From Isobaculum melis (GTDB lineage Bacteria; Bacillota; Bacilli; Lactobacillales; Carnobacteriaceae), in contig NZ_FOHA01000025.1 of assembly GCF_900111355.1 (NCBI RefSeq), forward strand, positions 1 through 24,000: a DNA stretch of 24,000 bases, in the 5' to 3' direction. This document shows, piece by piece, positions 2,804-19,065 of the stretch. A model generated the notes under the pieces. It was not told the origin of the DNA and made no database searches. It saw only the letters and a list, made by a program, of their open reading frames with translations. Each line of letters begins with the position of its first letter. Position 1 is the first letter of the stretch. The position numbers and the translations under genes were made by a program.

Positions 2804-2836
2804 AGGCAGAGATAAAATGAAAATTTATCTCTGCCT
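2804..2836 (-). terminator. Intrinsic terminator downstream of the TagF-like gene
   Basis: Perfect 13-bp stem AGGCAGAGATAAA (2804-2816) / TTTATCTCTGCCT (2824-2836) with a 7-nt loop. On the minus strand it is followed by T-rich TTAATTATTTTAAAAA. It lies 10 nt after the stop at 2846. Confidence 0.6.
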
Positions 2837-2845
2837 CATTCAAAC

Positions 2846-5673: not shown

Positions 5674-5695
5674 TAATATATGAGGTGATAGAGGA

Positions 5696-6880
5696 ATGGA
5701 AAAAGGGAAGTTAAAACAGCCATTATCATGGTTTTGGAAATGGTTTTTAAACAATAAGGTCGTTACAGGTTTGCTCGTACTATTATTAGTTTTGCTCAAC
5801 ATTATGATGTTTTCAAAAATTTCCTATATCTTTGAACCAATTGGTCAATTTTTTAGCATTATTGGCTTACCTTTGATTATGTCAGGAATTTTATATTATT
5901 TATTTAATCCAGTGATTGACTATTTTGAAGCAAAGAAAGTTCCAAGGTCTGTTAGTATTGTAATTGTTTTTCTACTCATAATTGGGATTATCATTTGGGG
6001 AGTGGCTACATTAGTTCCCTTAATTCGAGAACAGACCATGAGCTTTGTGAGTAACTTACCCTCTTATTGGGAGCAAATTTCTCATAGTGCAGATCAACTC
6101 ATGAAGAGTGATACGTTTGAACAATTCCAAGATGAGTTTTCTAAATTAAATACGGATATTTTTAAAACAATCACTGATAAAGTGACAAGTACGTTGAATT
6201 CGACGGTCAATGGTATTGGCAATCTATTAGGTGCTGTGACAAATGTGCTGATTGCATTGATTACAACACCCTTTATCTTATTCTATCTGCTTAAAGATGG
6301 ACATCAGCTACCCAATTATCTGAAAAAATTTATTCCAGTGAAAATGCAACACTCATCATTTAAGGTTTTACATGAAATGAATAAGCAAGTGAGTCAGTAT
6401 ATTCGTGGACAATTAATTGTGGCTTTTAGTGTAGCGATAATGTTTATTATTGGTTATGCAGTTATTGGTATGGATTATGGGATTACACTAGGGATTCTCG
6501 CAGGTGTCTTAAACTTGATTCCTTATTTAGGGTCATTTTTAGCGATGGTTCCAGCGATTATTTTAGGTTTAGTGATTTCCCCTATTATGTTAGTCAAGGT
6601 ATTAATCTTATTTATGATAGAACAAACAATTGAAGGTCGTTTTATTTCACCACTTATTTTAGGTAGTAATTTAGAAATTCATCCAGTGACCATTATTATT
6701 GTTTTACTCACTTCTGGAAAACTATTTGGCATCACAGGTGTGATTTTAGGGATTCCTGGTTATGCGGTCTTGAAAGTATTAGCCACACATATTTTTGAAT
6801 GGCATAAGGAAACTTCTGGCTTATACGATGAGCAGGAGGATAAGCAATTGTTACTGGAAACTGAGAAGAAAATAGAATGA
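5696..6880 (+). CDS. AI-2E family transporter (PerM/YdiK/UPF0118-type)
   Basis: 394-aa polytopic membrane ORF of about 8 hydrophobic segments, with the central soluble insertion and C-terminal pattern (NLIPYLGSF...IEGRFISPLILG) typical of AI-2E/PerM proteins. Confidence 0.85.
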   Translation: MEKGKLKQPLSWFWKWFLNNKVVTGLLVLLLVLLNIMMFSKISYIFEPIGQFFSIIGLPLIMSGILYYLFNPVIDYFEAKKVPRSVSIVIVFLLIIGIIIWGVATLVPLIREQTMSFVSNLPSYWEQISHSADQLMKSDTFEQFQDEFSKLNTDIFKTITDKVTSTLNSTVNGIGNLLGAVTNVLIALITTPFILFYLLKDGHQLPNYLKKFIPVKMQHSSFKVLHEMNKQVSQYIRGQLIVAFSVAIMFIIGYAVIGMDYGITLGILAGVLNLIPYLGSFLAMVPAIILGLVISPIMLVKVLILFMIEQTIEGRFISPLILGSNLEIHPVTIIIVLLTSGKLFGITGVILGIPGYAVLKVLATHIFEWHKETSGLYDEQEDKQLLLETEKKIE

Positions 6881-6894
6881 TAAATGAACCGAGG

Positions 6895-6927
6895 TAAGTA
6901 AAATAATTTATTTTACTTATCTTTTTT
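6895..6927 (+). terminator. AU-rich intrinsic terminator after the AI-2E transporter gene
   Basis: Stem TAAGTAAAA (6895-6903) / TTTTACTTA (6911-6919) followed by TCTTTTTT. The stem is weak because it is almost all A/U. Confidence 0.45.
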
Positions 6928-7043
6928 AATAGGAAATTTCCCGGGAAATACATAAATGAAATCAAAAAGGGATATGTCAAAGACTTTTGATAGCGGATGT
7001 TATTAGAACTGTTTAATATGATAGGTAAGAAAGGAGCAGTAAA

Positions 7044-7439
7044 ATGGATATTGGTACACAATTAAAAAAAAGACGTTTAGCTTTAAAATGGACACAAGAG
7101 CAAGTTGCTGAAAAAATTCATGTTTCTAGACAGACGATTTCCAATTGGGAAAACGGCCATAGCTACCCAGATATTGTTAGTGTGATTTTATTAAGTGATT
7201 TTTATGAAGTTTCCTTAGATGCTTTATTGAAAGGAGATCAAAAAATGGTTTATCATTTGCAAACATCAACCAATGTAGTCAAAAGTAACCGTCTGATTTT
7301 TTTGGGTTTACTTCTAAATGTTTTACTGATTGTGATGTTGATGTTTTCACAAGGAAATCAGCTACTCATCATCATCCTATTTACCATGGTGATTCTTAAT
7401 AGTGCCAACTTTATGTATCAGATTATTAAAAAAATATAG
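7044..7439 (+). CDS. XRE-family HTH regulator with C-terminal transmembrane segments
   Basis: The N-terminus has an HTH_3 pattern (LKWTQEQVAEKIHVSRQTISNWENGHSYP). The C-terminal ~50 aa form two hydrophobic helices. Good RBS (AAAGGAG). Confidence 0.8.
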   Translation: MDIGTQLKKRRLALKWTQEQVAEKIHVSRQTISNWENGHSYPDIVSVILLSDFYEVSLDALLKGDQKMVYHLQTSTNVVKSNRLIFLGLLLNVLLIVMLMFSQGNQLLIIILFTMVILNSANFMYQIIKKI

Positions 7440-7455
7440 TTAGGAGGAGAACCGA

Positions 7456-7776
7456 ATGGGGGCAAATATTCTAATGATACTATCAGGAGTATCTCTCGTA
7501 GCCTGTGCAATACCTCTGACTTATCAAATGTACCAATTGTTACTGCTTGATGCGAAGAGTAAAGGTCTTGAAAAACCTAAGCTTTGGGCTGTCATTGGTG
7601 CTTCTGGTGGTAGAGGAGAAGGATTGCTCTTATACCTTCTTAAAAGAAAAAACTATTCAGGCGAGGTGTTAGAAGTTGAACAGCAAAAAAAGTATCAATT
7701 GAAGAAAAGGTTGACTATTTTATTGCTGATTCAACTCATTAGTGCGTTATTCTTTTTACTTGGATTGTTTCTTTAA
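7456..7776 (+). CDS. Small two-TM membrane protein, possibly PLDc_N-like
   Basis: 106-aa ORF, 16 nt after the XRE gene, with RBS AGGAGG. Hydrophobic N- and C-termini flank a basic segment. The motif LLDAKSKGLEKPKLWAVIG...LLLYLL resembles the small PLD-N-terminal-domain membrane proteins, but this is a low-confidence recollection. Confidence 0.5.
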   Translation: MGANILMILSGVSLVACAIPLTYQMYQLLLLDAKSKGLEKPKLWAVIGASGGRGEGLLLYLLKRKNYSGEVLEVEQQKKYQLKKRLTILLLIQLISALFFLLGLFL

Positions 7777-7781
7777 AAGTT

Positions 7782-7825
7782 CTATCAGAAACCACTTTTT
7801 AGTGATAAAGAGAGGCTTCTGATAG
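7782..7825 (+). terminator. Hairpin downstream of the small membrane protein gene (weak terminator candidate)
   Basis: 12-bp stem CTATCAGAAACC / GGCTTCTGATAG with one mismatch and a 20-nt loop. The U-tract that follows is poor (TCGTTTAGC). Confidence 0.3.
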
Positions 7826-7834
7826 TCGTTTAGC

Positions 7835-7866
7835 TAAAAAAATAAGCCGCTTTCATAAAAGGGCTT
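7835..7866 (-). terminator. Minus-strand-oriented intrinsic-terminator-like hairpin with no minus-strand gene to terminate
   Basis: Stem AAGCCGCTTT (7844-7853) / AAAGGGCTT (7858-7866) with one bulge and loop CATA. On the minus strand it is followed by ATTTTTTT (7836-7843). On the plus strand it is followed by GCAAAAAAAG, so it has no U-tract there. Confidence 0.4.
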
Positions 7867-7893
7867 GCAAAAAAAGATAGGGCAGGTTATACT
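7865..7893 (+). promoter_or_regulatory. Candidate sigma-A promoter of the yhf-like cluster (TTGCAA-17-TATACT)
   Basis: -35 TTGCAA (7865-7870), an exact 17-nt spacer, and -10 TATACT (7888-7893). It would produce a leader of about 245 nt containing both palindromes. Confidence 0.45.
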
Positions 7894-7928
7894 TTAGATG
7901 CTATCTAGAAAGCGTTTTATTTTTAAAT

Positions 7929-7952
7929 CAATATACATTTAAATGTATATTG
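7929..7952. promoter_or_regulatory. Operator-like perfect 24-bp palindrome, copy 1 (CAATATACA-N6-TGTATATTG)
   Basis: CAATATACATTTAAATGTATATTG equals its own reverse complement, verified base by base. Confidence 0.55.
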
Positions 7953-7994
7953 GAAGCAAAGAGTATAAACAAGGATTAATCGTAACGTGCTCAT

Positions 7995-8020
7995 TCAATA
8001 TACAAAATATTGTATATTGA
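7995..8020. promoter_or_regulatory. Operator-like palindrome, copy 2 (same CAATATACA-N6-TGTATATTG half-sites)
   Basis: TCAATATACAAAATATTGTATATTGA has 11-bp arms and a 4-nt centre. Its half-sites are identical to copy 1, and the two centres are 67 bp apart. Confidence 0.55.
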
Positions 8021-8053
8021 GAAGGCGCAAGATTTTAATTGATCGATGCAGTA

Positions 8054-8082
8054 TTGATTGAGTCATTTTTTCTATCTAAGAT
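8054..8082 (+). promoter_or_regulatory. Alternative proximal promoter candidate (TTGATT-17-TAAGAT)
   Basis: -35 TTGATT (8054-8059), a 17-nt spacer, and -10 TAAGAT (8077-8082). A small palindrome CTATCT-A-AGATAG (8072-8084) overlaps the -10 element. Confidence 0.3.
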
Positions 8083-8143
8083 AGCGAGAATCAACAAATT
8101 TAGTCAGTCATAATCAACAGAATAGATTAAAGGAGGAAAAAGT

Positions 8144-8506
8144 ATGAAAACAATTGTAGTCGGAGGACAAATTGATAAACCAGAAGTAAAAACACTAGTT
8201 GAGACATTAGCAGCTGGACAATTTAATGTAGAAGTGAAAAGTGATTTAGAAGCAGCTATGGCTGTGAAATCAGGGGATGCTGACTATTATGTAGGCGCTT
8301 GCAACACTGGTGGTGGCGGAGCTTTAGCAATGGCATTAGCATTATTAGGACATGATCAATGTGTCACCGTTTCAATGCCAGGTAAAATGATGGAAGAAAC
8401 GAAAATCCGTGAGGAAGTACGTAGTGGTAAAAAAGCTTTTGGTTTTACAGCACAAGATAAAGAAAAAGTGATTCCTATTTTAATGGATGAATTAAAGCAA
8501 TTATAA
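8144..8506 (+). CDS. yhfU: DUF2620 family protein (YhfU-like)
   Basis: 120-aa soluble ORF with a strong RBS (AAAGGAGG). It has a beta-strand start (MKTIVVGG) and a Cys/Gly-rich loop (YYVGACNTGGGGALAMALA) characteristic of YhfU/DUF2620, as recalled. Confidence 0.75.
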   Translation: MKTIVVGGQIDKPEVKTLVETLAAGQFNVEVKSDLEAAMAVKSGDADYYVGACNTGGGGALAMALALLGHDQCVTVSMPGKMMEETKIREEVRSGKKAFGFTAQDKEKVIPILMDELKQL

Positions 8507-8532
8507 AAAGTATGTTGGAGGTATAAGAAATC

Positions 8533-9846
8533 ATGGATACATCAAAAATTATTGAGTTATTAGTCGTGGGAGCATTAGGTGCCCTGTGTTCAATCTTAGC
8601 AAATAGAGGGATTGCCGTTTTTAATGATGGCTTACGTCCAGTTGTTCCTGAATTTTTAGAAGGAAAAATTGGTAAAAAAGAAATTGCAGCAACAAGCTTT
8701 GCTTTAAGCTTTGGTTTAGTCATTGGTTTTGGGATTCCGGTTTCAATTGGTGCTTCTATTATTCTGGTTCATAGTATTTTACTAGCAACAGATATTATTG
8801 GTAGCTGGTCACCAGTTGGCAAAAAAGGCATCATTATTGCTGGTGTTGTTGGGGCAGCTTACGGTGTCGGAATTACACTAGGTTTACAAGCAGTTGTTGA
8901 TTTATTTGCGAAAATGCCAGTGGACTTCTTACCTTCATTAGCAATGGTAGGGACACCAGTCGTTGTGGCCTTCTCAATTTTCCCAGCAGTAGCAATTGCC
9001 TATCAACATGGCTTTAAAAAAGGTGCGATTTCATTTGCGCTTGTTGGTTTAACATTATTTGCAGTGAAAAAATTTGGTACATTCACTTTAAGTGGTGGCA
9101 CAACATTCACTTTAAGTGCAGAAGGTATGTCTTTACTTGTTGGAATGATCCTCATGATTATCTTCGCAGTTGGTGTGAAAGGTGATGGAGATGCTAACCA
9201 AAACTTAATGAGTATCTTTATGGAACGTGTAAACCGTATTAAAAAGAACTGGATTCTTTTATCAGCTGTCGGTGGTTTAGTCAGTGCAGCAACAAGTCTT
9301 TTAATGATTGCAGGCGACCCAATTTCGCTAAATCTTTTAAGTGATGGAAAATATAGTGAAGCAGCGTTAGCAGCATTTGCTCGTGGGATTGGTTTTATCC
9401 CATTAGTATTCTCAACAGCAATTGTAACAGGTGTTTACAGTCCAGCTGGAACAACCTTTGTTTTTGTAGTGGGTATTTTACTAAGAGGCAACCCAATCTT
9501 AGCATTTGTGGTTGGTGCGCTTGTGATGTTTATTGAAATCATGTTATTAAACGGTATGGCGAAAGGGTTAGATAAATTCCCTGGCGTTCGTGAAATGGGC
9601 GAACATATCCGTACTTCTATGAATAAAGTCTTAGAAGTTGCCTTACTTATTGGTGGTGCTATGGCTTCTGAAGCAATGGCACCAGGTATTGGTTACTTCT
9701 GGGTCATTGGTTTGTATCTATTAAATAGAACAGCGAAGAAACCACTTGTTGATTTAGCAGTTGGACCAGTGGCAGCAATTGCCTTAGGTATTATTGTGAA
9801 CATTCTTTATCTAGTCGGTTTATTCACTCCTGTTGTAGCAGGTTAA
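8533..9846 (+). CDS. yhfT: YhfT-like polytopic membrane protein (putative permease)
   Basis: 437-aa ORF with about 10-12 hydrophobic segments, 26 nt after the yhfU-like gene. Its size and position match E. coli YhfT. Confidence 0.75.
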   Translation: MDTSKIIELLVVGALGALCSILANRGIAVFNDGLRPVVPEFLEGKIGKKEIAATSFALSFGLVIGFGIPVSIGASIILVHSILLATDIIGSWSPVGKKGIIIAGVVGAAYGVGITLGLQAVVDLFAKMPVDFLPSLAMVGTPVVVAFSIFPAVAIAYQHGFKKGAISFALVGLTLFAVKKFGTFTLSGGTTFTLSAEGMSLLVGMILMIIFAVGVKGDGDANQNLMSIFMERVNRIKKNWILLSAVGGLVSAATSLLMIAGDPISLNLLSDGKYSEAALAAFARGIGFIPLVFSTAIVTGVYSPAGTTFVFVVGILLRGNPILAFVVGALVMFIEIMLLNGMAKGLDKFPGVREMGEHIRTSMNKVLEVALLIGGAMASEAMAPGIGYFWVIGLYLLNRTAKKPLVDLAVGPVAAIALGIIVNILYLVGLFTPVVAG

Positions 9847-9864
9847 AGAAAGGCGTTATCGTAA

Positions 9865-10863
9865 ATGAAAAAAACAGTCAAAGAATTTGCCAAAGCAACG
9901 ATGTTGGCGTATCAAAACCCGTATCACAGCGTAGCATACATTGCTCCCCCAGCATTTGATGAAGCCTGTCAGCAATTAGAAGCTGATTTAACACCGTTTT
10001 ATTTTGGTGTGAAAGAGACCCCTGTTTTAAATCCATGTCAAATGGCTTTGTCTGAAGCAGGTATGATTTTTCATACAATTGATAAAATGTCGGATCATGG
10101 TCGGGCGATTGATACAACTTTGGTAAATCCTTTAACTGGAAGAAGTATGACAGGTTCTTCAAGTGGAACAGCTATCAATGTTTTGCTTGGCATGAATGAT
10201 ATTGGGATTGGCAGTGATGGGGGTGGGTCTGTACTTGCTCCTGCCATGGCACTGCAATTATATGGCTTGATTCATCCAGCATTACCCGTGGTAAAAGTTA
10301 AAAAGCAATCAACTGATAACTTAACCTTTACCCCATCAGCAGGTTTCATTACTAGAAATTTTGCTTGTTTAGCAAAAGGTCTGGCTGTTTTTGATTTAAA
10401 GCCTGAAATGACAGCGATTAAAGTAGCCATTCCCAAAGGCTTAAGCCAGGAATTCTTAGCAGATTTGGCCCCTCAACTTTCAGCGTTGATCTCACTCGTG
10501 GAAGTTGACTATCCAGATTGTACGGCTGAGCGTTCCAAATTAATCCCTTGGCTTGAGCAAATGATGCAGCAATATGATGTAGTGATTTCACTGGAAGGGC
10601 CTATTGATACTTCTTCATATGGAGACTCTCTATTAGGAAGTTTTAGCGAACTTAGAAGTGCGGCACAGCAAGAAAGTGGTAAAGGCTTATTAAGAATTGT
10701 GAATATGCTTGATTTAGTAGGCCTAACCATTCCCTATGATGATTTGGCAAAAGGGCTATTATTGATTGCAAACCCAGCCAAAACAAGTGCGATTTTAGCC
10801 ATTGCACAAGCAGTTCAACCACTGATTCCAGAATTGGTTCAGCGTTATTTTCATAAGAAATAG
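9865..10863 (+). CDS. Compact amidase-signature (AS) family-like protein
   Basis: 332-aa ORF. The segment TGSSSGTAINVLLGMNDIGIGSDGGGSVLAPA parallels the AS consensus GGSSGGSAAAVA...GTDTGGSIRIPA. S98 to S122 is 24 residues apart, the usual cis-Ser to nucleophile-Ser spacing. A candidate catalytic Lys lies in FGVKE (K50). Confidence 0.6.
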   Translation: MKKTVKEFAKATMLAYQNPYHSVAYIAPPAFDEACQQLEADLTPFYFGVKETPVLNPCQMALSEAGMIFHTIDKMSDHGRAIDTTLVNPLTGRSMTGSSSGTAINVLLGMNDIGIGSDGGGSVLAPAMALQLYGLIHPALPVVKVKKQSTDNLTFTPSAGFITRNFACLAKGLAVFDLKPEMTAIKVAIPKGLSQEFLADLAPQLSALISLVEVDYPDCTAERSKLIPWLEQMMQQYDVVISLEGPIDTSSYGDSLLGSFSELRSAAQQESGKGLLRIVNMLDLVGLTIPYDDLAKGLLLIANPAKTSAILAIAQAVQPLIPELVQRYFHKK

Positions 10864-10875
10864 GAGATGATTAAG

Positions 10876-11754
10876 ATGCCATTAGTAGATGGAATGACAT
10901 TGATGCACGAACACACAACAATTGATTTATCAGGTGTGAAACAAAATGATGATTGTAATTTAAACTGCTTTGAAGAAACCATTAAAGAGTACCAAGTTCT
11001 TTATGAACAAGGGATTCGTAATATTGTAGATGTCACTGTTATGGGGATGAAAAGAAACCCAGAATATGTTAGAAAAGTGGCGGAAGCTTCTGGTATTCAT
11101 ATCATCCAAGCGACAGGTTGCTATACGGAGCGTTTCCTACCAGATTTTGTTGAAACAGATACCATTGAAGCTTTAGCAGAACGAATGATTCAAGAAATTG
11201 AAGTAGGTATTGATGGTACGGATATTAAAGCTGAAATTATTGGTGAAATTGGTTCAAGTAAAAATCAAATGACACCAAAAGAAACAAAAGTTTTTGAAGC
11301 TGCAGTATTAGCACATAAAAAAACAGGTAAGCCGATTACTACACATACAACCTTAGGGACTTATGGACATGAACAAATTGAATTCTTTAAAGAACGTGGC
11401 GTGGATTTATCACGTGTAGTCATTGGTCATGTAGACTTAAGCGGCAATGCTGATTATGTTTTGCATATGCTAAAAGAAGGCGTCTATGTAGAATTTGATA
11501 CCGTTGGCAAAGAGAACTATATGCCAGATCAAACACGTTTAGAAATGTTATTAAAAATTCAAGAAGCAGGCTTTACAGATAAAGTTTTTCTTTCATTAGA
11601 TATCACACGTAAAACAAATATGGCTTATAAAGGTGGTATTGGCTATCATTATTTAATGGATACATTTGTCCCTATGTTACGTGCTGGCGGCATTGAAGAA
11701 AGCTTTATCGAAAAAATGTTGGTGCATAATCCTCATACTTTTATGAACCAATAA
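10876..11754 (+). CDS. php: Phosphotriesterase-homology protein (Php/YhfV; amidohydrolase superfamily, COG1735)
   Basis: It carries the HxH motif (LMHEH), then E in IIGEIG, H in ITTHTT, H in VIGHVD and D in LSLDITR, which is a full Php-type binuclear metal site. The ORF track starts at ATG 10867, but that codon abuts the RBS AGGAG (10862-10866). ATG 10876 gives 9-nt spacing and a 292-aa product. Confidence 0.85.
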   Translation: MPLVDGMTLMHEHTTIDLSGVKQNDDCNLNCFEETIKEYQVLYEQGIRNIVDVTVMGMKRNPEYVRKVAEASGIHIIQATGCYTERFLPDFVETDTIEALAERMIQEIEVGIDGTDIKAEIIGEIGSSKNQMTPKETKVFEAAVLAHKKTGKPITTHTTLGTYGHEQIEFFKERGVDLSRVVIGHVDLSGNADYVLHMLKEGVYVEFDTVGKENYMPDQTRLEMLLKIQEAGFTDKVFLSLDITRKTNMAYKGGIGYHYLMDTFVPMLRAGGIEESFIEKMLVHNPHTFMNQ

Positions 11755-11773
11755 AAAAAGGAAGATATAAACT

Positions 11774-12871
11774 ATGGAAACTTATCCTTTAACAAGTTTA
11801 ACAATTGAAGAAGCAACACAAAAACAGTTTGCATTAGTTGATGCAATTACCAAAGAATTTAAAGGCTCAGAAATTTTAACACGTGGTGACTTAGGCGTAG
11901 TTCCTGGACTAAATCAGCCTAAAACGACACATCAAGTAGAAAAAGTACTCGCCAATTTCTTTGATGCTGAAGCAGCAATGTTAGTGCGTGGTGCGGGTAC
12001 AATGGCCATTCGTTTGGCGATGCATGCAGTACTGAAAGCAGGAGATACGCTACTTGTTCATGATGCACCAGTTTATCCAACAACACAAACATCTATTGAA
12101 ATGATGAATCTCAAGGTGATTAAAGCCGATTTTAATGATCTCGAAGCAGTTAAAGCAGTAGCTGCAGCTTCAGACATTCAAGGAGCATTGGTTCAATTTA
12201 CCCGACAAAAACCAGATGACTCTTATGATATTGGAGAAGTGATTGCAGCAATTCAAGCTGTGTTGCCTGACTGTCCCATTATTACTGATGACAATTATGC
12301 GGTCTTAAAAGTACCACAAATTGGTTCAGAGCTAGGTGCGACAATGGCTTGCTTCTCAACCTTTAAATTATTAGGTCCAGAAGGTGTTGGGTGTATTATT
12401 GGCTCAAAAGTAGCGATTGCTAAGCTAAGAAAAGAAAATTATTCAGGTGGGCTACAAGTACAAGGCTTTGAAGCGATTGCAGTTCTTCAAGGATTGATTT
12501 ATGCCCCAGTTGCGTTAGCGATTTCTGCTCAAGTGAGTGGAAAAGTTTGTACGCGACTAAACAATGGTGAAATACCTGGTGTCAAAAAAGCCTTTATTGC
12601 CAATGCACAGTCAAAAGTGTTGCTGATTGAATTAGAGGAAGCCAATGCCAATGAGGTATTAATTGAAGCCGAAAAATTAGGCGCGGCACCAAATCCAATT
12701 GGCGCTGAATCAAAATATGAATTTGTCCCAATGTTTTACCGCCTATCAGGTACATTTAGAGCAGCCAATCCCAAAGCATCTGAATCAATGATTCGTGTCA
12801 ATCCAATGCGTTCAGGTGAAGAAACAGTCTTACGTATCTTAAAAGAAGCGATCCTAAAAGCTGCGAAATAG
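11774..12871 (+). CDS. yhfS: Fold-type-I PLP-dependent enzyme, YhfS-like (SelA/DgaE-related aminotransferase class-V fold)
   Basis: 365-aa ORF. The putative Schiff-base lysine sits in FSTFKLLGPEG (K198, AAA at 12365-12367), similar to the S-x-x-K-x-L-x-GP motif of class V/SelA-like enzymes. A DDNYA motif lies upstream. Confidence 0.75.
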   Translation: METYPLTSLTIEEATQKQFALVDAITKEFKGSEILTRGDLGVVPGLNQPKTTHQVEKVLANFFDAEAAMLVRGAGTMAIRLAMHAVLKAGDTLLVHDAPVYPTTQTSIEMMNLKVIKADFNDLEAVKAVAAASDIQGALVQFTRQKPDDSYDIGEVIAAIQAVLPDCPIITDDNYAVLKVPQIGSELGATMACFSTFKLLGPEGVGCIIGSKVAIAKLRKENYSGGLQVQGFEAIAVLQGLIYAPVALAISAQVSGKVCTRLNNGEIPGVKKAFIANAQSKVLLIELEEANANEVLIEAEKLGAAPNPIGAESKYEFVPMFYRLSGTFRAANPKASESMIRVNPMRSGEETVLRILKEAILKAAK

Positions 12872-12880
12872 CTTTTGCTA

Positions 12881-12910
12881 TTGACTAACGGGAGAGACTA
12901 TCCTTACAAT
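12881..12910 (+). promoter_or_regulatory. Candidate internal promoter ahead of the regulator block (TTGACT-18-TACAAT)
   Basis: -35 TTGACT (12881-12886), an 18-nt spacer, and -10 TACAAT (12905-12910), located in the only long gap (122 nt) inside the cluster. Confidence 0.4.
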
Positions 12911-12918
12911 AAAATTAG

Positions 12919-12964
12919 GACGTGTCTGAAAAATTCAAATGCTACTGTAGTTTTCTGACACGTC
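12919..12964. promoter_or_regulatory. Strong inverted repeat/hairpin upstream of the yhfZ-like gene
   Basis: GACGTGTCTGAAAA (12919-12932) pairs with TTTTCTGACACGTC (12951-12964). That is 14 bp with one mismatch and an 18-nt loop, extendable by 4 weaker pairs. The upstream flank is A-rich, so it looks like a terminator only when read on the minus strand. Confidence 0.5.
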
Positions 12965-12993
12965 TTAACAAAAAAAGAGTCGAGGGATGCAAC

Positions 12994-13917
12994 ATGAATG
13001 AACATTTTTATCAAAAAACCGGAATTGTCATTACTTGGTTGGCAAGAGATTTAATGCAATTAAAAAAAGGGGATAGAATGCCCATTATTAGCGACTATCA
13101 ACAACAGTTTGACATTTCGAGAGGCACCGTGCAGAATGCGTTGCAATTCCTGAAAGATAAAGAAGCTATTGAGACAATTAGTAAAGGTCATTTAGGGACA
13201 TTCTTAAGTGAAGTAAACTATGAAGTTCTACAGCAATATGCGATTTCTGACTATGTTGTAGGGACCATGCCATTACCTTATTCTCGCTTATATGAAGGCT
13301 TTGCTACAGGATTATATCAAAACTTTAGTGACCATCAAATGCGTTTGAATATGGCTTATGTACGAGGTTCAAAAGACCGGATTCAATCAGTGGTTAATGG
13401 TGTGTATCATTTTGCAGTCGTCTCAAAATTTGCAGCAATGGAAGCCATCCGTCGTGAGGCTCCAGTTGAACAGATTATTGACTTTGGACCTTATACCTAT
13501 TTGTCTAGGCATATCTTATTATTTGCGGAAGCACAGCAAAATCAGATTGAGGATCAAATGCGTGTAGGCATTGACAATAGTTCCTATGACCAACAAACCT
13601 TAACACATGAAATTACCAAAAATAAGCAAGTTGAATTTGTAGAAATGCCAGGCCATCAATTAATTTATGCCTTAAAAGAAGGCGTCATAGATGCAGGTGT
13701 TTGGAACTATGATGAAATTGTGGATAAAAATTACCAAGATTTAAATTATCGCTTTATAGAAGAAAGTCAGCTGCAATTAGATATGAGTACCGCAGTGATT
13801 ATTTGCCATAAAGAGGATGCTATTTTTAAAACCGTCTTAAAGAAAAATATTGATCAACAAGCGTTATTAGCAACGCAAAAACAAGTATTAGAGGGGAATT
13901 TGATTCCTCGCTATTAA
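12994..13917 (+). CDS. yhfZ: YhfZ-like transcriptional regulator (GntR-type winged HTH plus YhfZ C-terminal ligand-binding-like domain)
   Basis: It has a GntR-like HTH (ISDYQQQFDISRGTVQNALQFLKDKEAIE). The ORF track begins at GTG 12922, inside the hairpin and without an RBS. ATG 12994 is preceded by GAGGGA at 6-nt spacing and gives 307 aa. Confidence 0.75.
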   Translation: MNEHFYQKTGIVITWLARDLMQLKKGDRMPIISDYQQQFDISRGTVQNALQFLKDKEAIETISKGHLGTFLSEVNYEVLQQYAISDYVVGTMPLPYSRLYEGFATGLYQNFSDHQMRLNMAYVRGSKDRIQSVVNGVYHFAVVSKFAAMEAIRREAPVEQIIDFGPYTYLSRHILLFAEAQQNQIEDQMRVGIDNSSYDQQTLTHEITKNKQVEFVEMPGHQLIYALKEGVIDAGVWNYDEIVDKNYQDLNYRFIEESQLQLDMSTAVIICHKEDAIFKTVLKKNIDQQALLATQKQVLEGNLIPRY

Positions 13918-13936
13918 AAAGATGGAGCGATGAAGA

Positions 13937-14278
13937 ATGATTCAAGAAAAATTAACAGTCTTAAAGACAGCAAACGTGATTGATGAAGCTGTTTACCAAT
14001 ATATGCAAGAAGTATTAAGTGTTTTAGAAACCAAAGAGTTAGTAGAAAAGTCGGAGGTTTTTATGACGCATTTAGCCATGGCGACTGCTCGTCAGCAAAA
14101 AGGTGAGAGCGTTGGCGCATTAGATGCATTGATTGTTGAACAAATGAAAGCAGAAACGCAATACGAAGAAGCAGTTGCGATTTGGCATGAATTAGCGGCT
14201 CTTGCTCCTGTTACATTTCATGAAGATGAGCTAGCATACCTTTATTTACACCTTTGTACCATGCTAGCAGAAGATTAG
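13937..14278 (+). CDS. yhfY: Stand-alone PRD-domain protein (YhfY-like)
   Basis: 113-aa all-helical ORF carrying both canonical PRD histidine contexts: FMTHLAMATAR (H45) and DELAYLYLHL (H105). It has no RNA-binding or DNA-binding domain. Confidence 0.7.
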   Translation: MIQEKLTVLKTANVIDEAVYQYMQEVLSVLETKELVEKSEVFMTHLAMATARQQKGESVGALDALIVEQMKAETQYEEAVAIWHELAALAPVTFHEDELAYLYLHLCTMLAED

Positions 14279-14290
14279 GGGGCGTGATTC

Positions 14291-15448
14291 ATGTTTTTGG
14301 AAGCAACGAAAAGAAGAAATCCTAAAATGATTGAAACGGCTATTCAGCTACATCAACAAGGAACGGTTTTACCAGATACCTACATTTTAGATTTAGATAT
14401 GATTGAAGCGAATGCAAAGCAAATGCTTGAAGTTGCTAAGCAGCATCAAGTGGAATTATTTTATATGACCAAACAAATTGGGCGCAATCCTCTTGTAGCT
14501 AAAAAATTAGCTGAATTAGGGATGAGTCATGCAGTTGTTGTGGATTTTAAAGAAGCGCTTGTCATGATGGAGAATGGTTTACCAATTGGAAATGTTGGGC
14601 ATTTAGTACAAGTACCACAGCATTTACTTGAAAAAATCATGATTTATGGTGCAAAATATATTACTGTTTACTCAATGGAAATGCTTGTAAGTATTCAAAA
14701 AATAGCGAAAAAGCTTGGCAAAAAGCAAGCTGTTCTGCTGAAAATGGTTGGTGAGGATGATCAATTATATCCAGGTCAATATGGTGGGTTTTTACTAGAA
14801 GAAGTGGCACAGCACTTTCCTGCGATGAAAGCTTGTGATTTTGTTGAGATTAAAGGTATTACCTCATTTCCTTGTTTCTTATACCAAGCGGATACCCATG
14901 AATTAGAAGCAACCCATAATGTCAAAACCATTCAACAAGCGAAAGCCTTATTTAGTGAAGCTGGCTTTAACTTAGCTGAATTAAATGTGCCATCTGCGAC
15001 TTGTTCAAGAACGATTCCATTTATTCAATCATTTGGTGGGACACAGGGAGAGCCAGGACATGCATTGACTGGGACAACACCTATGCATGCATTAACTGAT
15101 TTACCAGAAAAACCAGCGATGGCTTATATCAGCGAGATTTCTCATACATTTAAAGGTCAAAGTTATCTTTACGGAGGCGGTTATTACCGTAGAGGGCATT
15201 TAGAAAATGTACTAATTGATAACCAAGGAACCAGAACCCTAGGAAAGGTTGCCCCTTTTGCTGATGAAAACATTGACTATTATTTAGAAGTTGATGGTGA
15301 ACAGCCTGTTGGCGCAACTGCTATTATGGCTTTTAGAACACAAATTTTTGTGACACGAAGCGAGGTTGCAGTTGTTTCAGGCATTCAATCGGGTAAACCA
15401 AAAGTAGAAGGTATTTATGACAGCCAAGGGAAATTTTTGAGAAGGTGA
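14291..15448 (+). CDS. yhfX: Fold-type-III PLP enzyme, alanine-racemase-N-terminal-domain family (YhfX-like)
   Basis: 385-aa ORF. The likely PLP lysine lies in FYMTKQIGRNP (K61), in the position of the alanine racemase VVKANAYG lysine. A C-terminal beta domain is present. Confidence 0.75.
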   Translation: MFLEATKRRNPKMIETAIQLHQQGTVLPDTYILDLDMIEANAKQMLEVAKQHQVELFYMTKQIGRNPLVAKKLAELGMSHAVVVDFKEALVMMENGLPIGNVGHLVQVPQHLLEKIMIYGAKYITVYSMEMLVSIQKIAKKLGKKQAVLLKMVGEDDQLYPGQYGGFLLEEVAQHFPAMKACDFVEIKGITSFPCFLYQADTHELEATHNVKTIQQAKALFSEAGFNLAELNVPSATCSRTIPFIQSFGGTQGEPGHALTGTTPMHALTDLPEKPAMAYISEISHTFKGQSYLYGGGYYRRGHLENVLIDNQGTRTLGKVAPFADENIDYYLEVDGEQPVGATAIMAFRTQIFVTRSEVAVVSGIQSGKPKVEGIYDSQGKFLRR

Positions 15449-15452
15449 AAAT

Positions 15453-16673
15453 ATGGGAAGATTTATTGTCATTGTATTAGATAGTTTTGGTGTCGGCTAT
15501 ATGGCGGACGCAGCAGAGGTGAGACCACGTGATGTGGGTGCGAATACGGCATTACACATTATTGAAAAAAAGCCTGAAATTCAGATTCCGACTATGGAAA
15601 AATTAGGATTAATGAATGCGATTGGACAGGAAACAGAAGCGTTACATTTTTCTAAAGAGGCAATTATTGGAACTGCTAATTTAGCCCATCATGGCGCGGA
15701 TTCATTTTTAGGCCATCAGGAGATTATGGGGACTACGCCTAAAATCCCTTTAATTGAACCCTTTCAAGCAGTGATTGATACAGTCGAACAACATTTGATT
15801 GAAGCAGATTATCAAGTGCGTCGTGTAGGTGAAGCAGGCGAGCCACAAATTCTAGTTGTCAATGAGTGTGCAACTGTCGGAGATAATTTAGAAACCGATT
15901 TAGGGCAAGTTTATAATGTTTCTGCTTGCTTGGATTTAATGCCTTTTGATGAAGTGAAGCAATTAGGTAGAACCGTTCGTGAAGTGGTCAAAGTTTCTCG
16001 AGTGATTACGTTTGGTGGGAGACAGATTACTTTAGATAATCTACTTGGTGCAAGAAAAATTAAACCAGGTGGCTTTGCAGGTGTTGATGCACCAGAGTCA
16101 GGTGTTTACTTGCATGACTACCATGTGATTCATTTAGGCTATGGCATTGATCCTGAAGTTCAAGTGCCGACAATCTTGGATCATGCGGGCATTACTGTTT
16201 CTTTACTTGGAAAAGCTGCAGATATTATTCAAACGTCTAGCAAACATTTATTTCCAGGCGTGGATTCAACTGAGTTATTTGATGACTTGGTAAGTGAAGT
16301 GAAGAAAATTAATGAAGGCTTTATTTGTTTGAATATTCAGGAAACTGATTTAGCGGGACATGCTGAGGATGTAGCGCGTTATGCAGATAGATTGGAACTG
16401 AGCGATAAACGGATTGCAGAAGTTATTTCTTTACTGAATACGGGGGATATTTTAATTGTGATGGCAGACCATGGGAATGACCCAACCATTGGACATAGTA
16501 ACCATACGCGTGAACGTGTACCTTTAATGATTTATAGCAAAGGTTTAGCAGGAATTGAAGTAGGAGAAAGAGAAACAATGGCAGATGTAGCCGCAACTGC
16601 AGCGGATTATTTTGGTGTGAAGATGCCACAACATGGTCATTCTTTCTTGGATAAAATAATCAATCGTTCATAA
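15453..16673 (+). CDS. yhfW: Phosphopentomutase-like metalloenzyme (YhfW-like; alkaline-phosphatase superfamily mutase)
   Basis: 406-aa ORF with DeoB-like motifs: VLDSFGVG (metal Asp), GHQEIMG, ETDLAGHAED, ADHGNDPT and HTRERVPL. Confidence 0.8.
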   Translation: MGRFIVIVLDSFGVGYMADAAEVRPRDVGANTALHIIEKKPEIQIPTMEKLGLMNAIGQETEALHFSKEAIIGTANLAHHGADSFLGHQEIMGTTPKIPLIEPFQAVIDTVEQHLIEADYQVRRVGEAGEPQILVVNECATVGDNLETDLGQVYNVSACLDLMPFDEVKQLGRTVREVVKVSRVITFGGRQITLDNLLGARKIKPGGFAGVDAPESGVYLHDYHVIHLGYGIDPEVQVPTILDHAGITVSLLGKAADIIQTSSKHLFPGVDSTELFDDLVSEVKKINEGFICLNIQETDLAGHAEDVARYADRLELSDKRIAEVISLLNTGDILIVMADHGNDPTIGHSNHTRERVPLMIYSKGLAGIEVGERETMADVAATAADYFGVKMPQHGHSFLDKIINRS

Positions 16674-16680
16674 TAAGAAT

Positions 16681-16721
16681 AGCCTAACGACCTGTTTTAA
16701 CGAGGCGTTAGGCTATTTTTT
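16681..16721. terminator. Bidirectional intrinsic terminator (ends the yhf-like cluster and the convergent Lrp/sORF unit)
   Basis: Perfect 9-bp GC-containing stem AGCCTAACG (16681-16689) / CGTTAGGCT (16706-16714), followed by ATTTTTT on the + strand. The minus-strand flank ATTCTTATTA is moderately T-rich. Confidence 0.75.
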
Positions 16722-16858
16722 CATTTCCTATTGACTTTGTTGCTGTCCGTCTTTCTTTGTAGCTGTTCTTTTTCTTTGGTTAAACGGCTGCCACCAATCA
16801 CAATTACAACAGCTAGCAATCCAATGGTAAATAAAATACCTAAAATCATAAAGCTCAT
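16721..16858 (-). CDS. Unlisted 45-aa single-TM peptide ORF
   Basis: Manual minus-strand translation gives MSFMILGILFTIGLLAVVIVIGGSRLTKEKEQLQRKTDSNKVNRK*. An RBS (AAAGGAA) lies 7 nt upstream of the ATG (16858). The ORF starts 16 nt after the Lrp gene stop, and its stop codon abuts the terminator. It falls below the ORF-track length cut-off. Confidence 0.4.
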   Translation of the reverse strand: MSFMILGILFTIGLLAVVIVIGGSRLTKEKEQLQRKTDSNKVNRK

Positions 16859-16874: not shown

Positions 16875-17294
16875 TTAAGCAATTGAGTAAGTTGAATTCA
16901 GAATTAAGGATGTGTTTACTTTGGCATATTTAATGAGTTCTGATAAAAGAACATTCATCTCATTAGTACTTTTTGAAGCACCTTTGACAATATAATTGGC
17001 TGTTCCAGTAATTGTATGAATTTCAATAATATCTGGAAAAGTAGTTAAAATGGTTTCAAATTTTTTGGTTGGAATCATTAATTGGCTAACTTCGATAAAA
17101 TAAGAAATAGGTTTTCCCATTTTTTCTTGATCCACCATAATGGTAAATTCCTGAATAATTTTCTGTTCAACTAGCTTATTGATTCTTTCCTTCACACTAG
17201 GTCTGCTAAGGCAAACTTCTTTTGAGATGTCCACAATAGACAGACGTGCATTTTTTTGTAATAAAGTAATAATTTTGCTATCAATGGCATCCAT
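16875..17294 (-). CDS. Lrp/AsnC family transcriptional regulator
   Basis: 139-aa ORF with an N-terminal HTH (DSKIITLLQKNARLSIVDISKEVCLSRPSVKERINKLVEQKII) and a C-terminal RAM-type effector domain. Strong RBS (GGGAGG). Confidence 0.85.
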   Translation of the reverse strand: MDAIDSKIITLLQKNARLSIVDISKEVCLSRPSVKERINKLVEQKIIQEFTIMVDQEKMGKPISYFIEVSQLMIPTKKFETILTTFPDIIEIHTITGTANYIVKGASKSTNEMNVLLSELIKYAKVNTSLILNSTYSIA

Positions 17295-17495: not shown

Positions 17496-18776
17496 ATGCG
17501 TACATTTGAAACAACACAAGCATTTGCTAAAAAGAAGGATGAACAGGATCCTTTAGCAGCAATTAGAAACCGTTTTTGTATTCAAGAAGGTGTCATTTAT
17601 ATGGATGGGAACTCTTTAGGGATGTGTTCCGTAGATGCAAAAGAGGCATTATATGATGTGATTGATAAGTGGGAGAAGCATGGCATTGGTATTTGGGATA
17701 TTGAAAATAGTAAATATTTTATGTACCAAAATGTCTTAGGGGAAAAATTAGCGCAGTTAATTCAAGCGAAGCCGGATGAAGTAACCGTGATGACCAATAC
17801 AACGATTAATATTCATCAAGGAATTAGTACTTTTTATCATCCAACCAAAGAGCGGTATAAAATTTTAGTGGATGATATTAATTTTCCAACAGATCGATAT
17901 GCGGTTGATAGCCAAATTCGATTAAAAGGTTTAGACCCAGACGAAGCGGTAAAAATTATTCATAGTCAAGATGAACGAACTTTAGATGAGGCAGCCATCA
18001 TTGAAGGAATGACTGAAGATGTTGCGTTAATTTTATTGCCAGCTGTTTTATATCGTAGTGCGCAATTGTTGGATATGGAGCGTGTGACCAAAGCAGCACA
18101 TGAGCGTGGCATTATTATTGGCTGGGATTTATGTCATTCAATTGGTGCAGTTCCTCATGATTTTAGTAAAATCCAACCAGATTTTGCTGTTTGGTGTAAT
18201 TATAAATATTTATCTGCTGGTCCAGGTGCGATTGCAGGTTTTTATATTAATGAGCGTCATTTTGAAAAAGAACCAGGTTTAGCAGGCTGGCAAGGGAATA
18301 AAAATGCGACCCAATTTAAGCTGTTACAAGCCTTTGATCATGAGCTAAATGCCCATGGCTGGCAAACAGGAACCCAGCCACTATTTTCAATGGCACCATT
18401 AGAGGGCGTCTTGAATATTTTCTTAGAGGTAGGAATGGAAGCTATTCGTACGAAATCATTGGATATTACTGCTTATCTGATGTTTTTAGCAGATGAGCAT
18501 TTAACGAAGCTGGGATATGAAATTGGGAATCCTCGTGAAGACAGTCGCAGAGGCGGTCATGTATCATTAGAGCATCCGGAAGCTTATCGTATTTGTAAAG
18601 CTTTAAAAAATCATCAAGTCGTGCCAGATTTTAGAGAACCAAATGTGATTCGCTTAGCACCAATCGCTCTTTATACTTCTTATGAGGAAGTTTATCAGCT
18701 TGTAGAAATTTTAGCGGATATTGTAAGAAATAAAGAATATTTGGATTATAGTGAAGAACGAACCTTGGTGGTTTGA
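17496..18776 (+). CDS. kynU: Kynureninase (PLP-dependent hydrolase)
   Basis: 426-aa ORF with kynureninase-typical blocks: YMDGNSLG, GWDLCHSIGAVP, and CNYKYLSAGPGAIAGFYIN (PLP lysine in KYL). RBS GAAGGAG. Confidence 0.8.
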   Translation: MRTFETTQAFAKKKDEQDPLAAIRNRFCIQEGVIYMDGNSLGMCSVDAKEALYDVIDKWEKHGIGIWDIENSKYFMYQNVLGEKLAQLIQAKPDEVTVMTNTTINIHQGISTFYHPTKERYKILVDDINFPTDRYAVDSQIRLKGLDPDEAVKIIHSQDERTLDEAAIIEGMTEDVALILLPAVLYRSAQLLDMERVTKAAHERGIIIGWDLCHSIGAVPHDFSKIQPDFAVWCNYKYLSAGPGAIAGFYINERHFEKEPGLAGWQGNKNATQFKLLQAFDHELNAHGWQTGTQPLFSMAPLEGVLNIFLEVGMEAIRTKSLDITAYLMFLADEHLTKLGYEIGNPREDSRRGGHVSLEHPEAYRICKALKNHQVVPDFREPNVIRLAPIALYTSYEEVYQLVEILADIVRNKEYLDYSEERTLVV

Positions 18777-18788
18777 TAACTAAATGAG

Positions 18789-18830
18789 GAAAGATACAAT
18801 AGATAGATACTATTGTATCTTTCTTTTTTT
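18789..18830 (+). terminator. Intrinsic terminator after kynU
   Basis: Perfect 13-bp stem GAAAGATACAATA (18789-18801) / TATTGTATCTTTC (18811-18823) with a 9-nt loop, followed by TTTTTTT. Confidence 0.8.
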
Positions 18831-18927
18831 ATTTTTTTACAAGCAAATTATCGATGCTATATAAAGAGGATTTATCATAAATGGAAGACTAAAATTGATG
18901 CACATGATATGATTGGCAGAGAGAGGA

Positions 18928-18957
18928 TTGACACATTTTGACACAAATTGTCATTAT
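18928..18957 (+). promoter_or_regulatory. Candidate adhesin promoter with tandem TTGACACA boxes
   Basis: TTGACACA occurs at 18928-18935 and 18938-18945, and TTGTCA at 18948-18953, giving a 10-bp phasing. The first TTGACA plus an 18-nt spacer reaches CATTAT (18952-18957). Confidence 0.35.
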
Positions 18958-19065
18958 CTTGCCTTTGAATAGTCGAAGGATGGATAGTAAGATTTCTATG
19001 TAAGGATAATAAAGTTGGGCGTTTTTAGATCGTGTCAAAATGTTGATAAATCAAGGAGGATAAAA

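Follow-up and report, generated by a model that had tools for sequence, protein, structure and literature searches.

The yhf/php gene cluster of Escherichia coli is a known orphan: its genes have been named, four Pfam families have been built on its members and three structures have been solved (PDB entries 1bf6, 4kbx and 4j8l). In strain K-12 the cluster (b3383–b3376) reads yhfZ-yhfY-yhfX-yhfW-php-yhfU-yhfT-yhfS on one strand and adjoins frlABCDR, which agrees with the order given in an initial annotation of the DNA studied here. Complete genomes of E. coli carry the cluster in 5,084 of 5,426 cases (∼94%). That annotation had also held that no substrate is assigned, and none is given in the open-access full text on the cluster, its genes and its families, in PDB names or in the 2026 RefSeq names; 4kbx and 4j8l still bear the name 'Uncharacterized protein', and the RefSeq 2026 names are generic. 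In Bacillus subtilis, yhf names found in the literature search denote unrelated genes. In this study, we analysed a window of 24,000 nucleotides (nt), contig NZ_FOHA01000025.1 of Isobaculum melis, in which a Gram-positive counterpart of this cluster spans positions 7865–16721.

Nine consecutive open reading frames (ORFs) occupy positions 8144–16673 of the plus strand in the order yhfU-yhfT-amidase-like-php-yhfS, followed by yhfZ-yhfY-yhfX-yhfW (Table 1; the genes are abbreviated below to their last letters, with A for the amidase-like gene and P for php). Eight of them had initially been matched to the E. coli set; Pfam, NCBIfam and BLASTP all agree with this match, and profile searches of each protein recovered the expected families for all nine ORFs. 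The eight counterparts are 31–58% identical to the K-12 proteins, seven over their full length and YhfY over 85 residues. Both clusters contain all eight families, tightly packed on one strand, with U-T, X-W and Z-Y adjacent in each. They differ in the order of the blocks, which is permuted (U-T-A-P-S and Z-Y-X-W in Isobaculum), in the adjacency of php and yhfS, which is present in Isobaculum and broken in E. coli, and in the amidase-signature gene that Isobaculum has between yhfT and php; the gene order of E. coli is thus not reproduced, and the shared adjacencies are limited to the three pairs. What is new here is a Gram-positive member with a widely shared extra amidase gene and a permuted order. 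The gene set is compact, orthologous and conserved as one unit, and it retains intact active sites and a cis element in common. With moderate confidence, we favour the reading that the region is a self-contained, substrate-inducible catabolic operon, the orthologue of E. coli yhfZYXW-php-yhfUTS with an amidase-signature gene added. Judged from sequence, its substrate would be an amine-bearing, sugar-like compound that is probably phosphorylated.

Conservation of the unit was assessed by a scan with the DUF2620 (YhfU) alignment over one genome per GTDB species, which found relatives in 329 genomes. The best 80 loci were analysed, and genes were counted per locus by BLASTP of all locus ORFs against the window and E. 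coli proteins. U is present in all 80 loci, T in 79, Y in 77, php in 76, S in 73, X in 71, W in 67 and the amidase-like gene in 64, most absences falling at contig ends. The hosts are Lactobacillales, Clostridia, Erysipelotrichia, Negativicutes, Mycoplasmatales, Spirochaetes (Entomospira plasmids, Treponema and Brachyspira), Thermotogae and Fusobacteriaceae. This co-occurrence across distant phyla bears out the functionally coupled module that had been proposed. At least six distinct gene orders were observed: the Isobaculum order U-T-A-P-S-Z-Y-X-W and its variants U-T-P-S-Z-Y-X-W-A and A divergent from U-T-P-S-Z-Y-X-W, together with Z-Y-U-T-A-P-S-X-W, Z-Y-U-T-P-S-X-W-A and Y-U-T-A-P-S-X-W-Z. 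The adjacencies U-T, P-S, X-W and Z-Y persist across lineages. The claim that blocks are conserved while their order is permuted therefore stands for the permutation and for these four pairs, but not for the whole Z-Y-X-W block across lineages. The core consists of U, T, php, S, X and Y, usually with W and Z, and the amidase, a hydrolase resembling PBP4B and NagB are accessory. That the nine genes are chance neighbours whose operon-like appearance is an artefact of ORF calling is scarcely credible, in view of family E-values down to 1e-169, the co-occurrence of nine families in dozens of distant genomes despite rearranged order, and a shared operator motif.

Several loci depart from the common composition. 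A reduced variant, Y-U-T-php-S-X, lies at 9184–14502 on the Bacillus thuringiensis megaplasmid NZ_CP126475.1 (L083); it lacks the mutase, YhfZ and the amidase, and two ATP-grasp genes and a major facilitator superfamily transporter gene lie downstream. On Entomospira plasmids p118 and p53 (L004 and L007) the cluster is plasmid-borne and lacks yhfZ and the amidase gene. In two loci from Negativicutes and Bacillota metagenome-assembled genomes (MAGs; L056 and L063) it is rearranged and has two copies of yhfT, with an ORF of 183 amino acids (aa), to which no family was assigned, between the second yhfT and yhfU and with membrane-protein genes downstream.

The layout in the window is operon-like. 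The gaps measure 26, 18, 3 and 19 nt in U-T-A-P-S and 19, 12 and 4 nt in Z-Y-X-W, and a single gap of 122 nt with promoter-like hexamers separates the blocks, as initially described. This last figure is counted from ATG 12994 and would be 50 nt from GTG 12922. The ATG is supported as the yhfZ start because the alignment with the E. coli protein begins at residue 25 of the longer call, because the NCBIfam match spans residues 27–331, and by a GAGGG ribosome-binding site. In most related loci the S-Z junction is only 9–41 nt long. The stem-loop in this gap (GACGTGTC...GACACGTC) is unrelated in sequence to the main operator. With no U run after the stem it does not qualify as a terminator, and it could be an mRNA 5′ stabilizer or a site for a second regulator. 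The strong terminator claimed downstream of yhfW was confirmed by folding as the only one of the cluster (16674–16725, −23.9 kcal/mol, z = −8.2, with a 3′ U run); the consensus scan had overlooked it because its loop is long. No riboswitch or leader was found by an Rfam scan of the whole window.

Upstream of yhfU lie two perfect palindromes, CAATATACA-N6-TGTATATTG, with 24-nt cores at 7929–7952 and 7996–8019. A position weight matrix (PWM) built on 65 sites from related loci has the consensus ATCAATATACAAAA-TTTTGTATATTGAT. With one mismatch allowed, the degenerate palindrome occurs 112 times in 63 of the 80 loci, compared with ∼25 occurrences in shuffled sequence, and in most relatives it stands just 5′ of the first gene of the operon. 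High-scoring sites precede Z in 26 cases, U in 22 and Y in 21. Four more precede genes for PBP4B-like hydrolases and another four lie in divergent intergenic regions between a PBP4B-like and a surface-protein gene in two Clostridium loci (L022 and L023); PBP4B-like genes with the palindrome open the operon in Granulicatella, Streptococcus and Carnobacteriaceae loci and are divergent in the two Clostridium loci. The nagB genes of two Clostridium species account for two further sites. Just 5′ of yhfZ, E. coli and Cetobacterium have palindromes that keep the N6 spacing and have a TTCA/TGAA core, the core being TTCA-N6-TGAA in E. coli versus TACA-N6-TGTA in Isobaculum. The two arms are unequal in 78 of 93 sites, each being close to the same half-site consensus. 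Because the arms differ yet each fits the consensus, the palindrome is best read as the site of a dimeric DNA-binding protein and not as an RNA stem; a role as an RNA hairpin or antiterminator target was rejected on the grounds of the unequal arms and of the lack of an RNA-binding domain in YhfY. The palindrome is probably the operator of YhfZ, bound by a YhfZ dimer. YhfZ combines HTH_41 with YhfZ_C (1.3e-69) and scores 398.8 bits with the NCBIfam model YhfZ_full (NF041241; cutoff 260), but is under the cutoff for Pfam GntR (20.9 versus 27). YhfY is matched by Pfam PRD (28.8 bits, 1.6e-06) and has no RNA- or DNA-binding domain; only L9, H45, R52 and E98 are conserved in 78 homologues, so that H45 is a candidate for the phosphorylatable histidine expected of a PRD regulator responding to the phosphotransferase system (PTS). 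Repression by YhfZ at the palindromes would last until its binding-protein-like domain takes up an effector, and His45 of YhfY would link YhfZ to the phosphorylation state of the PTS. In the Clostridium loci L022 and L023, at ∼3950–4920, two operator copies lie between the PBP4B-like gene and a divergent gene for an LPXTG-type surface protein with SGGNDGTE repeats, and a cell-wall-anchored protein may thus belong to the palindrome regulon there.

Table 1. Features of the yhf/php cluster in the Isobaculum melis window. Promoter-like and operator-like elements are predictions.
Feature	Position	Strand	Description
Promoter-like TTGCAA-17-TATACT, 5′ of the operon	7865–7893	+	Consensus scan, 9/12 matches; predicted
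Operator-like palindrome O1, ATCAATATACATTTAAATGTATATTGGA	7927–7954		PWM score 30.5; overlaps promoter-like site 7922–7951
Operator-like palindrome O2, TTCAATATACAAAATATTGTATATTGAG	7994–8021		PWM score 36.0, above every training site
yhfU	8144–8506	+	DUF2620 protein, RpiB/LacAB-like fold (model), motif GAC53-N-T55-GGGG
yhfT	8533–9846	+	Polytopic membrane protein, presumed permease
Amidase-like gene	9865–10863	+	Short (332 aa) amidase-signature-like hydrolase; partial Pfam Amidase match
php	10867–11754	+	Phosphotriesterase-family binuclear metal hydrolase
yhfS	11774–12871	+	Fold-type I pyridoxal phosphate (PLP) enzyme; YhfS-like_C with Aminotran_5
Internal promoter-like TTGACT-18-TACAAT, S-Z gap	12881–12910	+	Consensus scan, 10/12 matches; predicted
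Stem-loop/inverted repeat between internal promoter-like site and yhfZ	12915–12968	+	Strong; −21.4 kcal/mol, z = −5.7
yhfZ	12994–13917	+	Winged-helix regulator with binding-protein-like sensor domain; mechanical ORF call from GTG 12922
yhfY	13937–14278	+	Single-PRD protein
yhfX	14291–15448	+	Fold-type III PLP enzyme (alanine-racemase fold)
yhfW	15453–16673	+	Phosphopentomutase-like metalloenzyme
Intrinsic terminator, after yhfW	16675–16721	+	∼15 bp stem followed by a U run

In each enzyme family of the cluster, the residues for catalysis or cofactor binding reach at least 95% conservation. Php is 46% identical to its E. coli counterpart, matches Pfam PTE (PF02126; 291.7 bits, 8.9e-87) and keeps the metal ligands H14, H16, E127, H160, H188 and D245 (HxH, bridging Glu, His, His and Asp). 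It scores 340 bits with the NCBIfam equivalog PRK09875, under the cutoff of 486, and 75 bits with the phospho-furanose lactonase model; in a search of PDB sequences the closest structures were 4lef and 1bf6, and the PTER structure 9efa was the third-best distinct protein (129.6 bits). Php shares its fold and binuclear metal centre with the characterized hydrolases of the family (PTER and the phospho-sugar lactonases), but is far under their equivalog cutoffs. The family also includes homoserine-lactone lactonases. Mammalian PTER hydrolyses N-acetyltaurine and N-acetyl-β-alanine (PMC11374699; PMC13311154), and since a family member is an N-acetyl-amine hydrolase, Php may with equal plausibility be a deacetylase or a lactonase. 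YhfS is 58% identical to E. coli YhfS, with 4j8l as the closest structure and with K198 and D172 conserved. The likeness to SelA and DgaE first seen in it proved weak (E = 0.005 for the SelA family), the best-scoring characterized relatives being methionine γ-lyase and enzymes of the cystathionine γ-synthase family. YhfX contains Ala_racemase_N with YhfX-like_C and a conserved K61; its closest structure is 4kbx and its only other PDB matches are alanine racemases. YhfW matches Pfam Metalloenzyme (2.1e-38) and the NCBIfam model of YhfW-type phosphopentomutases, PRK12383 (576.6 bits versus a cutoff of 254), but is under the cutoffs of true DeoB (190.7 versus 256 and 153 versus 341). D10, D83, D299, H303, D339 and H340 are conserved, and the residue after D83, read from the sequences, is Ser in Isobaculum and Thr in E. 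coli.

The amidase-like gene had at first been taken as an extra of this genome. It is instead regular outside Enterobacteria, occurring in three different positions in the 64 related loci that have it, and is accessory though common because at least nine complete loci and E. coli are without it. The protein matches 'amidase family protein [Isobaculum melis]' with 100% identity, which places the window in this Carnobacteriaceae species or in a nearly identical strain. Its match to Pfam Amidase (PF01425; 30.5 bits, cutoff 27, 2.6e-07) covers residues 87–135 only, corresponding to profile positions 118–167 of a domain of ∼445 residues, so that it falls well short of full length. The elements of a putative Ser-cisSer-Lys triad, K50, S98–S100 (GSSS) and S122 (GGGS), are at least 95% conserved in 65 homologues, and S98 and S122 are 24 residues apart, the spacing known from malonamidase E2.

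The two remaining core proteins form a presumed uptake pair. T directly adjoins U throughout, and in nine loci the two ORFs share 1–4 nt. YhfT matches its Pfam family (PF10797; 563.7 bits, 3.8e-169, above the gathering threshold) over positions 2–430 of 430, and its AlphaFold2 model (predicted local distance difference test, pLDDT, 77) is all-helical. A Foldseek search for structural relatives in the PDB returned noise (TM 0.1–0.2), the best match being a tripartite ATP-independent periplasmic (TRAP) transporter (E = 1.9e-3, probability 0.41), and a profile search of PDB sequences gave nothing. An exhaustive profile search of 1.84 billion clusters found 348 representatives of the family; the 150 matches listed all belong to the YhfT family, and DUF4310 and DUF4311 are not among them. 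YhfU matches DUF2620 (153.7 bits, gathering threshold 25, 2.6e-45). Its AlphaFold2 model (pLDDT 96) finds as top Foldseek matches type B ribose-5-phosphate isomerases (TMq 0.60–0.70, probability 1.0), which rank ahead of generic flavodoxin and CheY folds. The hhalign alignment with E. coli RpiB places C53 and T55 on C66 and T68, and the DUF2620 profile run against PDB sequences found only the RpiB-superfamily entries 2ppw and 3c5y, both sub-threshold and aligned through the Cys-x-Thr motif; Pfam LacAB_rpiB gave no match even at E ≤ 10. As modelled, YhfU has the RpiB/LacAB isomerase fold with a catalytic-type Cys/Thr pair in the same loop. It has the fold and the position of the Cys-x-Thr-Gly motif in common with these isomerases, but is ∼30 residues shorter, lacks the C-terminal helix, which in RpiB supplies phosphate-binding Arg and His residues, and is always encoded beside a membrane-protein gene. 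YhfT would import the compound, with YhfU as its cytoplasmic partner or as the first isomerase of the pathway.

These features also bear on a different reading of the pair, in which YhfT and YhfU form a new group translocator of the phosphotransferase type, with YhfU acting like an EIIB carrier phosphorylated on Cys53, YhfT like an EIIC, and phosphorylated YhfU controlling YhfY through its PRD histidine. The substrate would thereby enter the cell in phosphorylated form; the proposal bears on uptake alone and fits any substrate. We consider this unlikely, although it would account for a phosphomutase in a cluster without a kinase, a PRD protein with a conserved His45 in the core, an invariant Cys in a glycine-rich loop at a helix N-terminus with the geometry of an anion-binding site, and the constant adjacency and occasional overlap of U and T. 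A further point for it is a nearly full-length, sub-threshold match of YhfU to Pfam Gly_rich_SFCGS (E = 0.07). This family occurs in another PRD-linked cluster with membrane proteins, the Enterococcus faecalis EF_0829–0839 type, which comprises a glycine-rich Cys protein, membrane proteins (DUF4310/DUF4311), a PRD-only protein, an amidohydrolase and a SelA-like PLP enzyme; the literature search yielded nothing on the function of the SFCGS/DUF4310–4312 cluster. However, YhfU resembles RpiB, with no EIIB among the top 50 structural matches; its Cys follows strand 3, as in RpiB, and not strand 1, as in EIIB, and the Thr two residues on matches the catalytic pair of RpiB. Nor do the nine proteins, U and T among them, contain any PTS Pfam domain (EIIA, EIIB or EIIC), YhfT lacks EIIC similarity and no EIIA is conserved nearby. 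Assignment of YhfU as a PTS EIIB, prompted by its conserved Cys, was rejected since the structure and the motif register point to RpiB. The window does contain an orphan EIIA of the glucitol/sorbitol type (5311–5673, plus strand; PF03829, 3e-31) without adjoining EIIB or EIIC genes and followed by an AI-2E family transporter gene (5696–6880); it was rejected as a missing PTS partner because the gene fails to recur among the 80 related loci. No kinase was seen in any locus examined, and a phosphomutase without a kinase implies that the substrate is imported phosphorylated, that YhfT and YhfU phosphorylate it or that a kinase is encoded elsewhere.

In other species the palindrome-controlled unit has recruited two genes that bear on the substrate. 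A true nagB (290–314 bits versus a cutoff of 236.9) adjoins the cluster in eight of the 80 loci and in two Izimaplasma genomes, representing at least six lineages, usually 10–75 nt 3′ of yhfW or else preceded by an operator copy of its own. This repeated association with nagB suggests an amino sugar. The second gene, found in 17 of the 80 loci, encodes a secreted or lipoprotein serine hydrolase of PF00144, for which the best NCBIfam match is PBP4B; these proteins have signal peptides and an SVTK motif and are 33–42% identical to E. coli PBP4B/YfeW over most of their length. Both genes stand under the shared operator in a minority of related loci and both are absent from the window. Weaker clues come from further genes in some loci. 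A lactate permease gene lies 3′ of nagB in Izimaplasma ZiA1, and genes for flavin adenine dinucleotide-linked, D-lactate-dehydrogenase-like oxidases lie 3′ of the cluster on both Entomospira plasmids, one of which (L007) also has a short-chain dehydrogenase gene. CutC is encoded near the cluster in two loci. In Izimaplasma HR1 (L085), the cluster with nagB is flanked at 3856–7908 and 18435–21035: one side has genes for an AraC regulator and a GH38 α-mannosidase, and the other has genes for CutC, for an oxidoreductase of the GFO type and for a NagA-like Amidohydro_1 protein. These flanks hint at a glycan or amino-sugar neighbourhood. Two other associations were set aside: nucleoside hydrolase and ATP-binding cassette/branched-chain transporter genes 5′ of the cluster in some Lactobacillales were treated as lineage synteny, since they lie outside the operator-controlled unit, and a convergent glmS in Lacrimispora was taken as coincidence.

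For the catabolic operon that we favour, the following scheme may be envisaged. After uptake, Php and, where present, the amidase-like enzyme would cleave amide, ester or lactone bonds by deacylation or ring opening, YhfW would relocate a phosphate group, and YhfX and YhfS would act at the carbon that bears the amine, by inversion and by removal or elimination. The six-step order of reactions proposed at first, beginning with import and possible phosphorylation, is conjectural; the substrate classes named with it (a phosphorylated amino-sugar acid, a sugar lactone or an N-acylated amino compound) are plausible, with nagB favouring an amino sugar. In the D-glucosaminate (dga) pathway of Salmonella, the PLP ammonia-lyase DgaE is likewise of fold type I and has as its substrate a phosphorylated carbon chain of the amino-sugar type; unlike that pathway, the yhf cluster lacks a mannose-family PTS and 2-keto-3-deoxy-6-phosphogluconate aldolase and adds a fold-type III PLP enzyme, a mutase and Php. 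Tentatively, we suggest as the substrate an amino sugar, derived from peptidoglycan or from other material of the cell wall, with glucosamine-6-phosphate as the end point of its breakdown.

A described route that invites comparison is the recycling of N-acetylmuramic acid (MurNAc). In E. coli, where the MurNAc genes are murR/murQ-murP-yfeW, yfeW is the third gene of the operon murQ-murP-yfeW, and the B. subtilis operon reads murQ-murR-murP-amiE-nagZ-namZ. AmiE, which belongs to the same Pfam family as the PBP4B-like hydrolase (PMC10653849, Table 1), is the secreted exo-MurNAc-L-Ala amidase of the latter operon (PMC8054146). Related yhf loci are similar in having a secreted YfeW-like PF00144 hydrolase and in that the products would feed NagB. 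They differ in lacking MurQ, the MurP PTS permease and NagZ, and their enzyme set (two PLP enzymes, a mutase and a PTE-type hydrolase) is entirely other; the window lacks the PBP4B-like gene and nagB as well. Neither the MurQ etherase nor the MurP permease was found among the recurrent flanking-gene clusters of the 80 loci or among the annotated ORFs of the window. A substrate specifically of the muramic-acid type appears doubtful, and it is likewise rather improbable that the cluster allows an amino sugar of the cell wall to be used without MurQ, whether muramic acid itself or a form of it that is de-N-acetylated, is a lactam or bears a peptide. In such a MurQ-independent route, the compound would enter through the two-part system of YhfT and the RpiB-fold YhfU, Php would deacylate it or open its ring, and a PLP enzyme would act directly on the free C2 amine of the sugar phosphate, epimerize it and eliminate or replace the 3-O-lactyl group to give glucosamine-6-phosphate and lactate.

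The same enzymes could instead act on a derivative of an amino acid, for which lactones, lactams, N-acyl amino acids, D-amino acids and stem-peptide fragments of the cell wall are candidates. In that case the amidase and Php would deacylate the compound or open its ring, YhfX would racemize it and YhfS would transaminate it or carry out γ- or β-elimination. The best relatives of YhfS, in the methionine γ-lyase and cystathionine γ-synthase family, fit such chemistry, as do the alanine-racemase fold of YhfX, with alanine racemases as its only non-YhfX PDB matches, and the presence of homoserine-lactone lactonases and of the N-acetyl-amine hydrolase PTER in the family of Php. The PBP4B-like hydrolase, like AmiE (PMC8054146), could release peptides as well as sugars, the B. 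thuringiensis variant dispenses with the mutase, and an M29 aminopeptidase gene lies downstream in one locus (L018). Still, we hold this proposal to be unlikely; it leaves YhfW, present in 67 of the 80 loci, and the RpiB-fold YhfU unexplained, together with the repeated recruitment of nagB under the shared operator. Glycated amino acids (Amadori or Heyns products or glycosyl-amino-acid conjugates) are a further candidate, in parallel with the fructoselysine (frl) operon of E. coli, and one that we regard as very improbable. In K-12 yhfS lies 151 bp from frlR, directly after frlABCDR, and Heyns products are N-substituted glucosamines that could account for nagB. An asparaginase acts first in fructose-asparagine use by Salmonella, to which the amidase could be analogous. 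However, the frl adjacency was observed in E. coli only, no frl-like kinase, deglycase or SIS-domain gene recurs in the flanks of the 80 loci, PLP enzymes need a primary amine and the PBP4B-like hydrolase is left unexplained.

Several observations weigh against the amino-sugar operon as proposed. The genes that point to cell-wall material are infrequent, nagB occurring in only ∼10 of ∼87 loci and the PBP4B-like gene in ∼17 of 80, and the lactate-related genes are confined to two lineages. The PBP4B-like proteins score under the NCBIfam cutoff (230–294 versus 385 bits), and the family to which they belong, PF00144, is broad. For both families of PLP enzymes, amino-acid metabolism is a more typical setting than sugar metabolism. 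The substrate must differ from plain MurNAc because E. coli already has murQP-yfeW, and the presence of the cluster in wall-less Izimaplasma and Acholeplasma and in Mycoplasmatales MAGs implies at most scavenging and not the recycling of an own wall. Phosphate migration is not universal, since the B. thuringiensis variant has no mutase, and a stepwise pathway cannot be written because none of the loci showed a kinase, an etherase, a dehydrogenase or an aldolase. As regards control, the operators in the window lie 125–215 nt 5′ of yhfU, not at the start codon as in most relatives, and in the window none precedes yhfZ, the Z-Y-X-W block having its own promoter-like element.

Beyond the cluster, the minus strand at 601–5047 encodes a GFO/IDH/MocA oxidoreductase, a seven-bladed β-propeller lactonase and a TarS-like CDP-glycerol glycerophosphotransferase of the teichoic-acid type. 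After the terminator, an AsnC/Lrp-type regulator gene (16875–17294, minus strand) and a gene for a kynureninase-like class V PLP enzyme (17496–18776, plus strand) form a divergent pair, neither member of which is conserved with the cluster in other genomes. A gene for a secreted surface protein of at least 1645 aa with InlK_D3, SdrD_B and Ig-like domains (19066–24000, plus strand) then runs off the end of the window; in Culicoidibacter larvae (L089) genes for giant surface proteins flank the yhf cluster on both sides.

The yhf/php cluster is among the better-defined orphan pathways of a model organism, with structures 1bf6, 4kbx and 4j8l and yet no recorded substrate. The present analysis makes the substrate question testable by providing a candidate operator, a division into core and accessory genes, an RpiB-type fold predicted for YhfU and the links to nagB and PBP4B, and it narrows the substrate candidates towards amino sugars that would yield glucosamine-6-phosphate, possibly from peptidoglycan. 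If this is true, the cluster would represent a nutrient-scavenging route of relevance to gut ecology and a new transporter family. Should the MurQ-independent route in particular prove true, an unrecognized pathway and transporter class would be common to ∼94% of the complete genomes of E. coli and to hundreds of species associated with the gut or with hosts.

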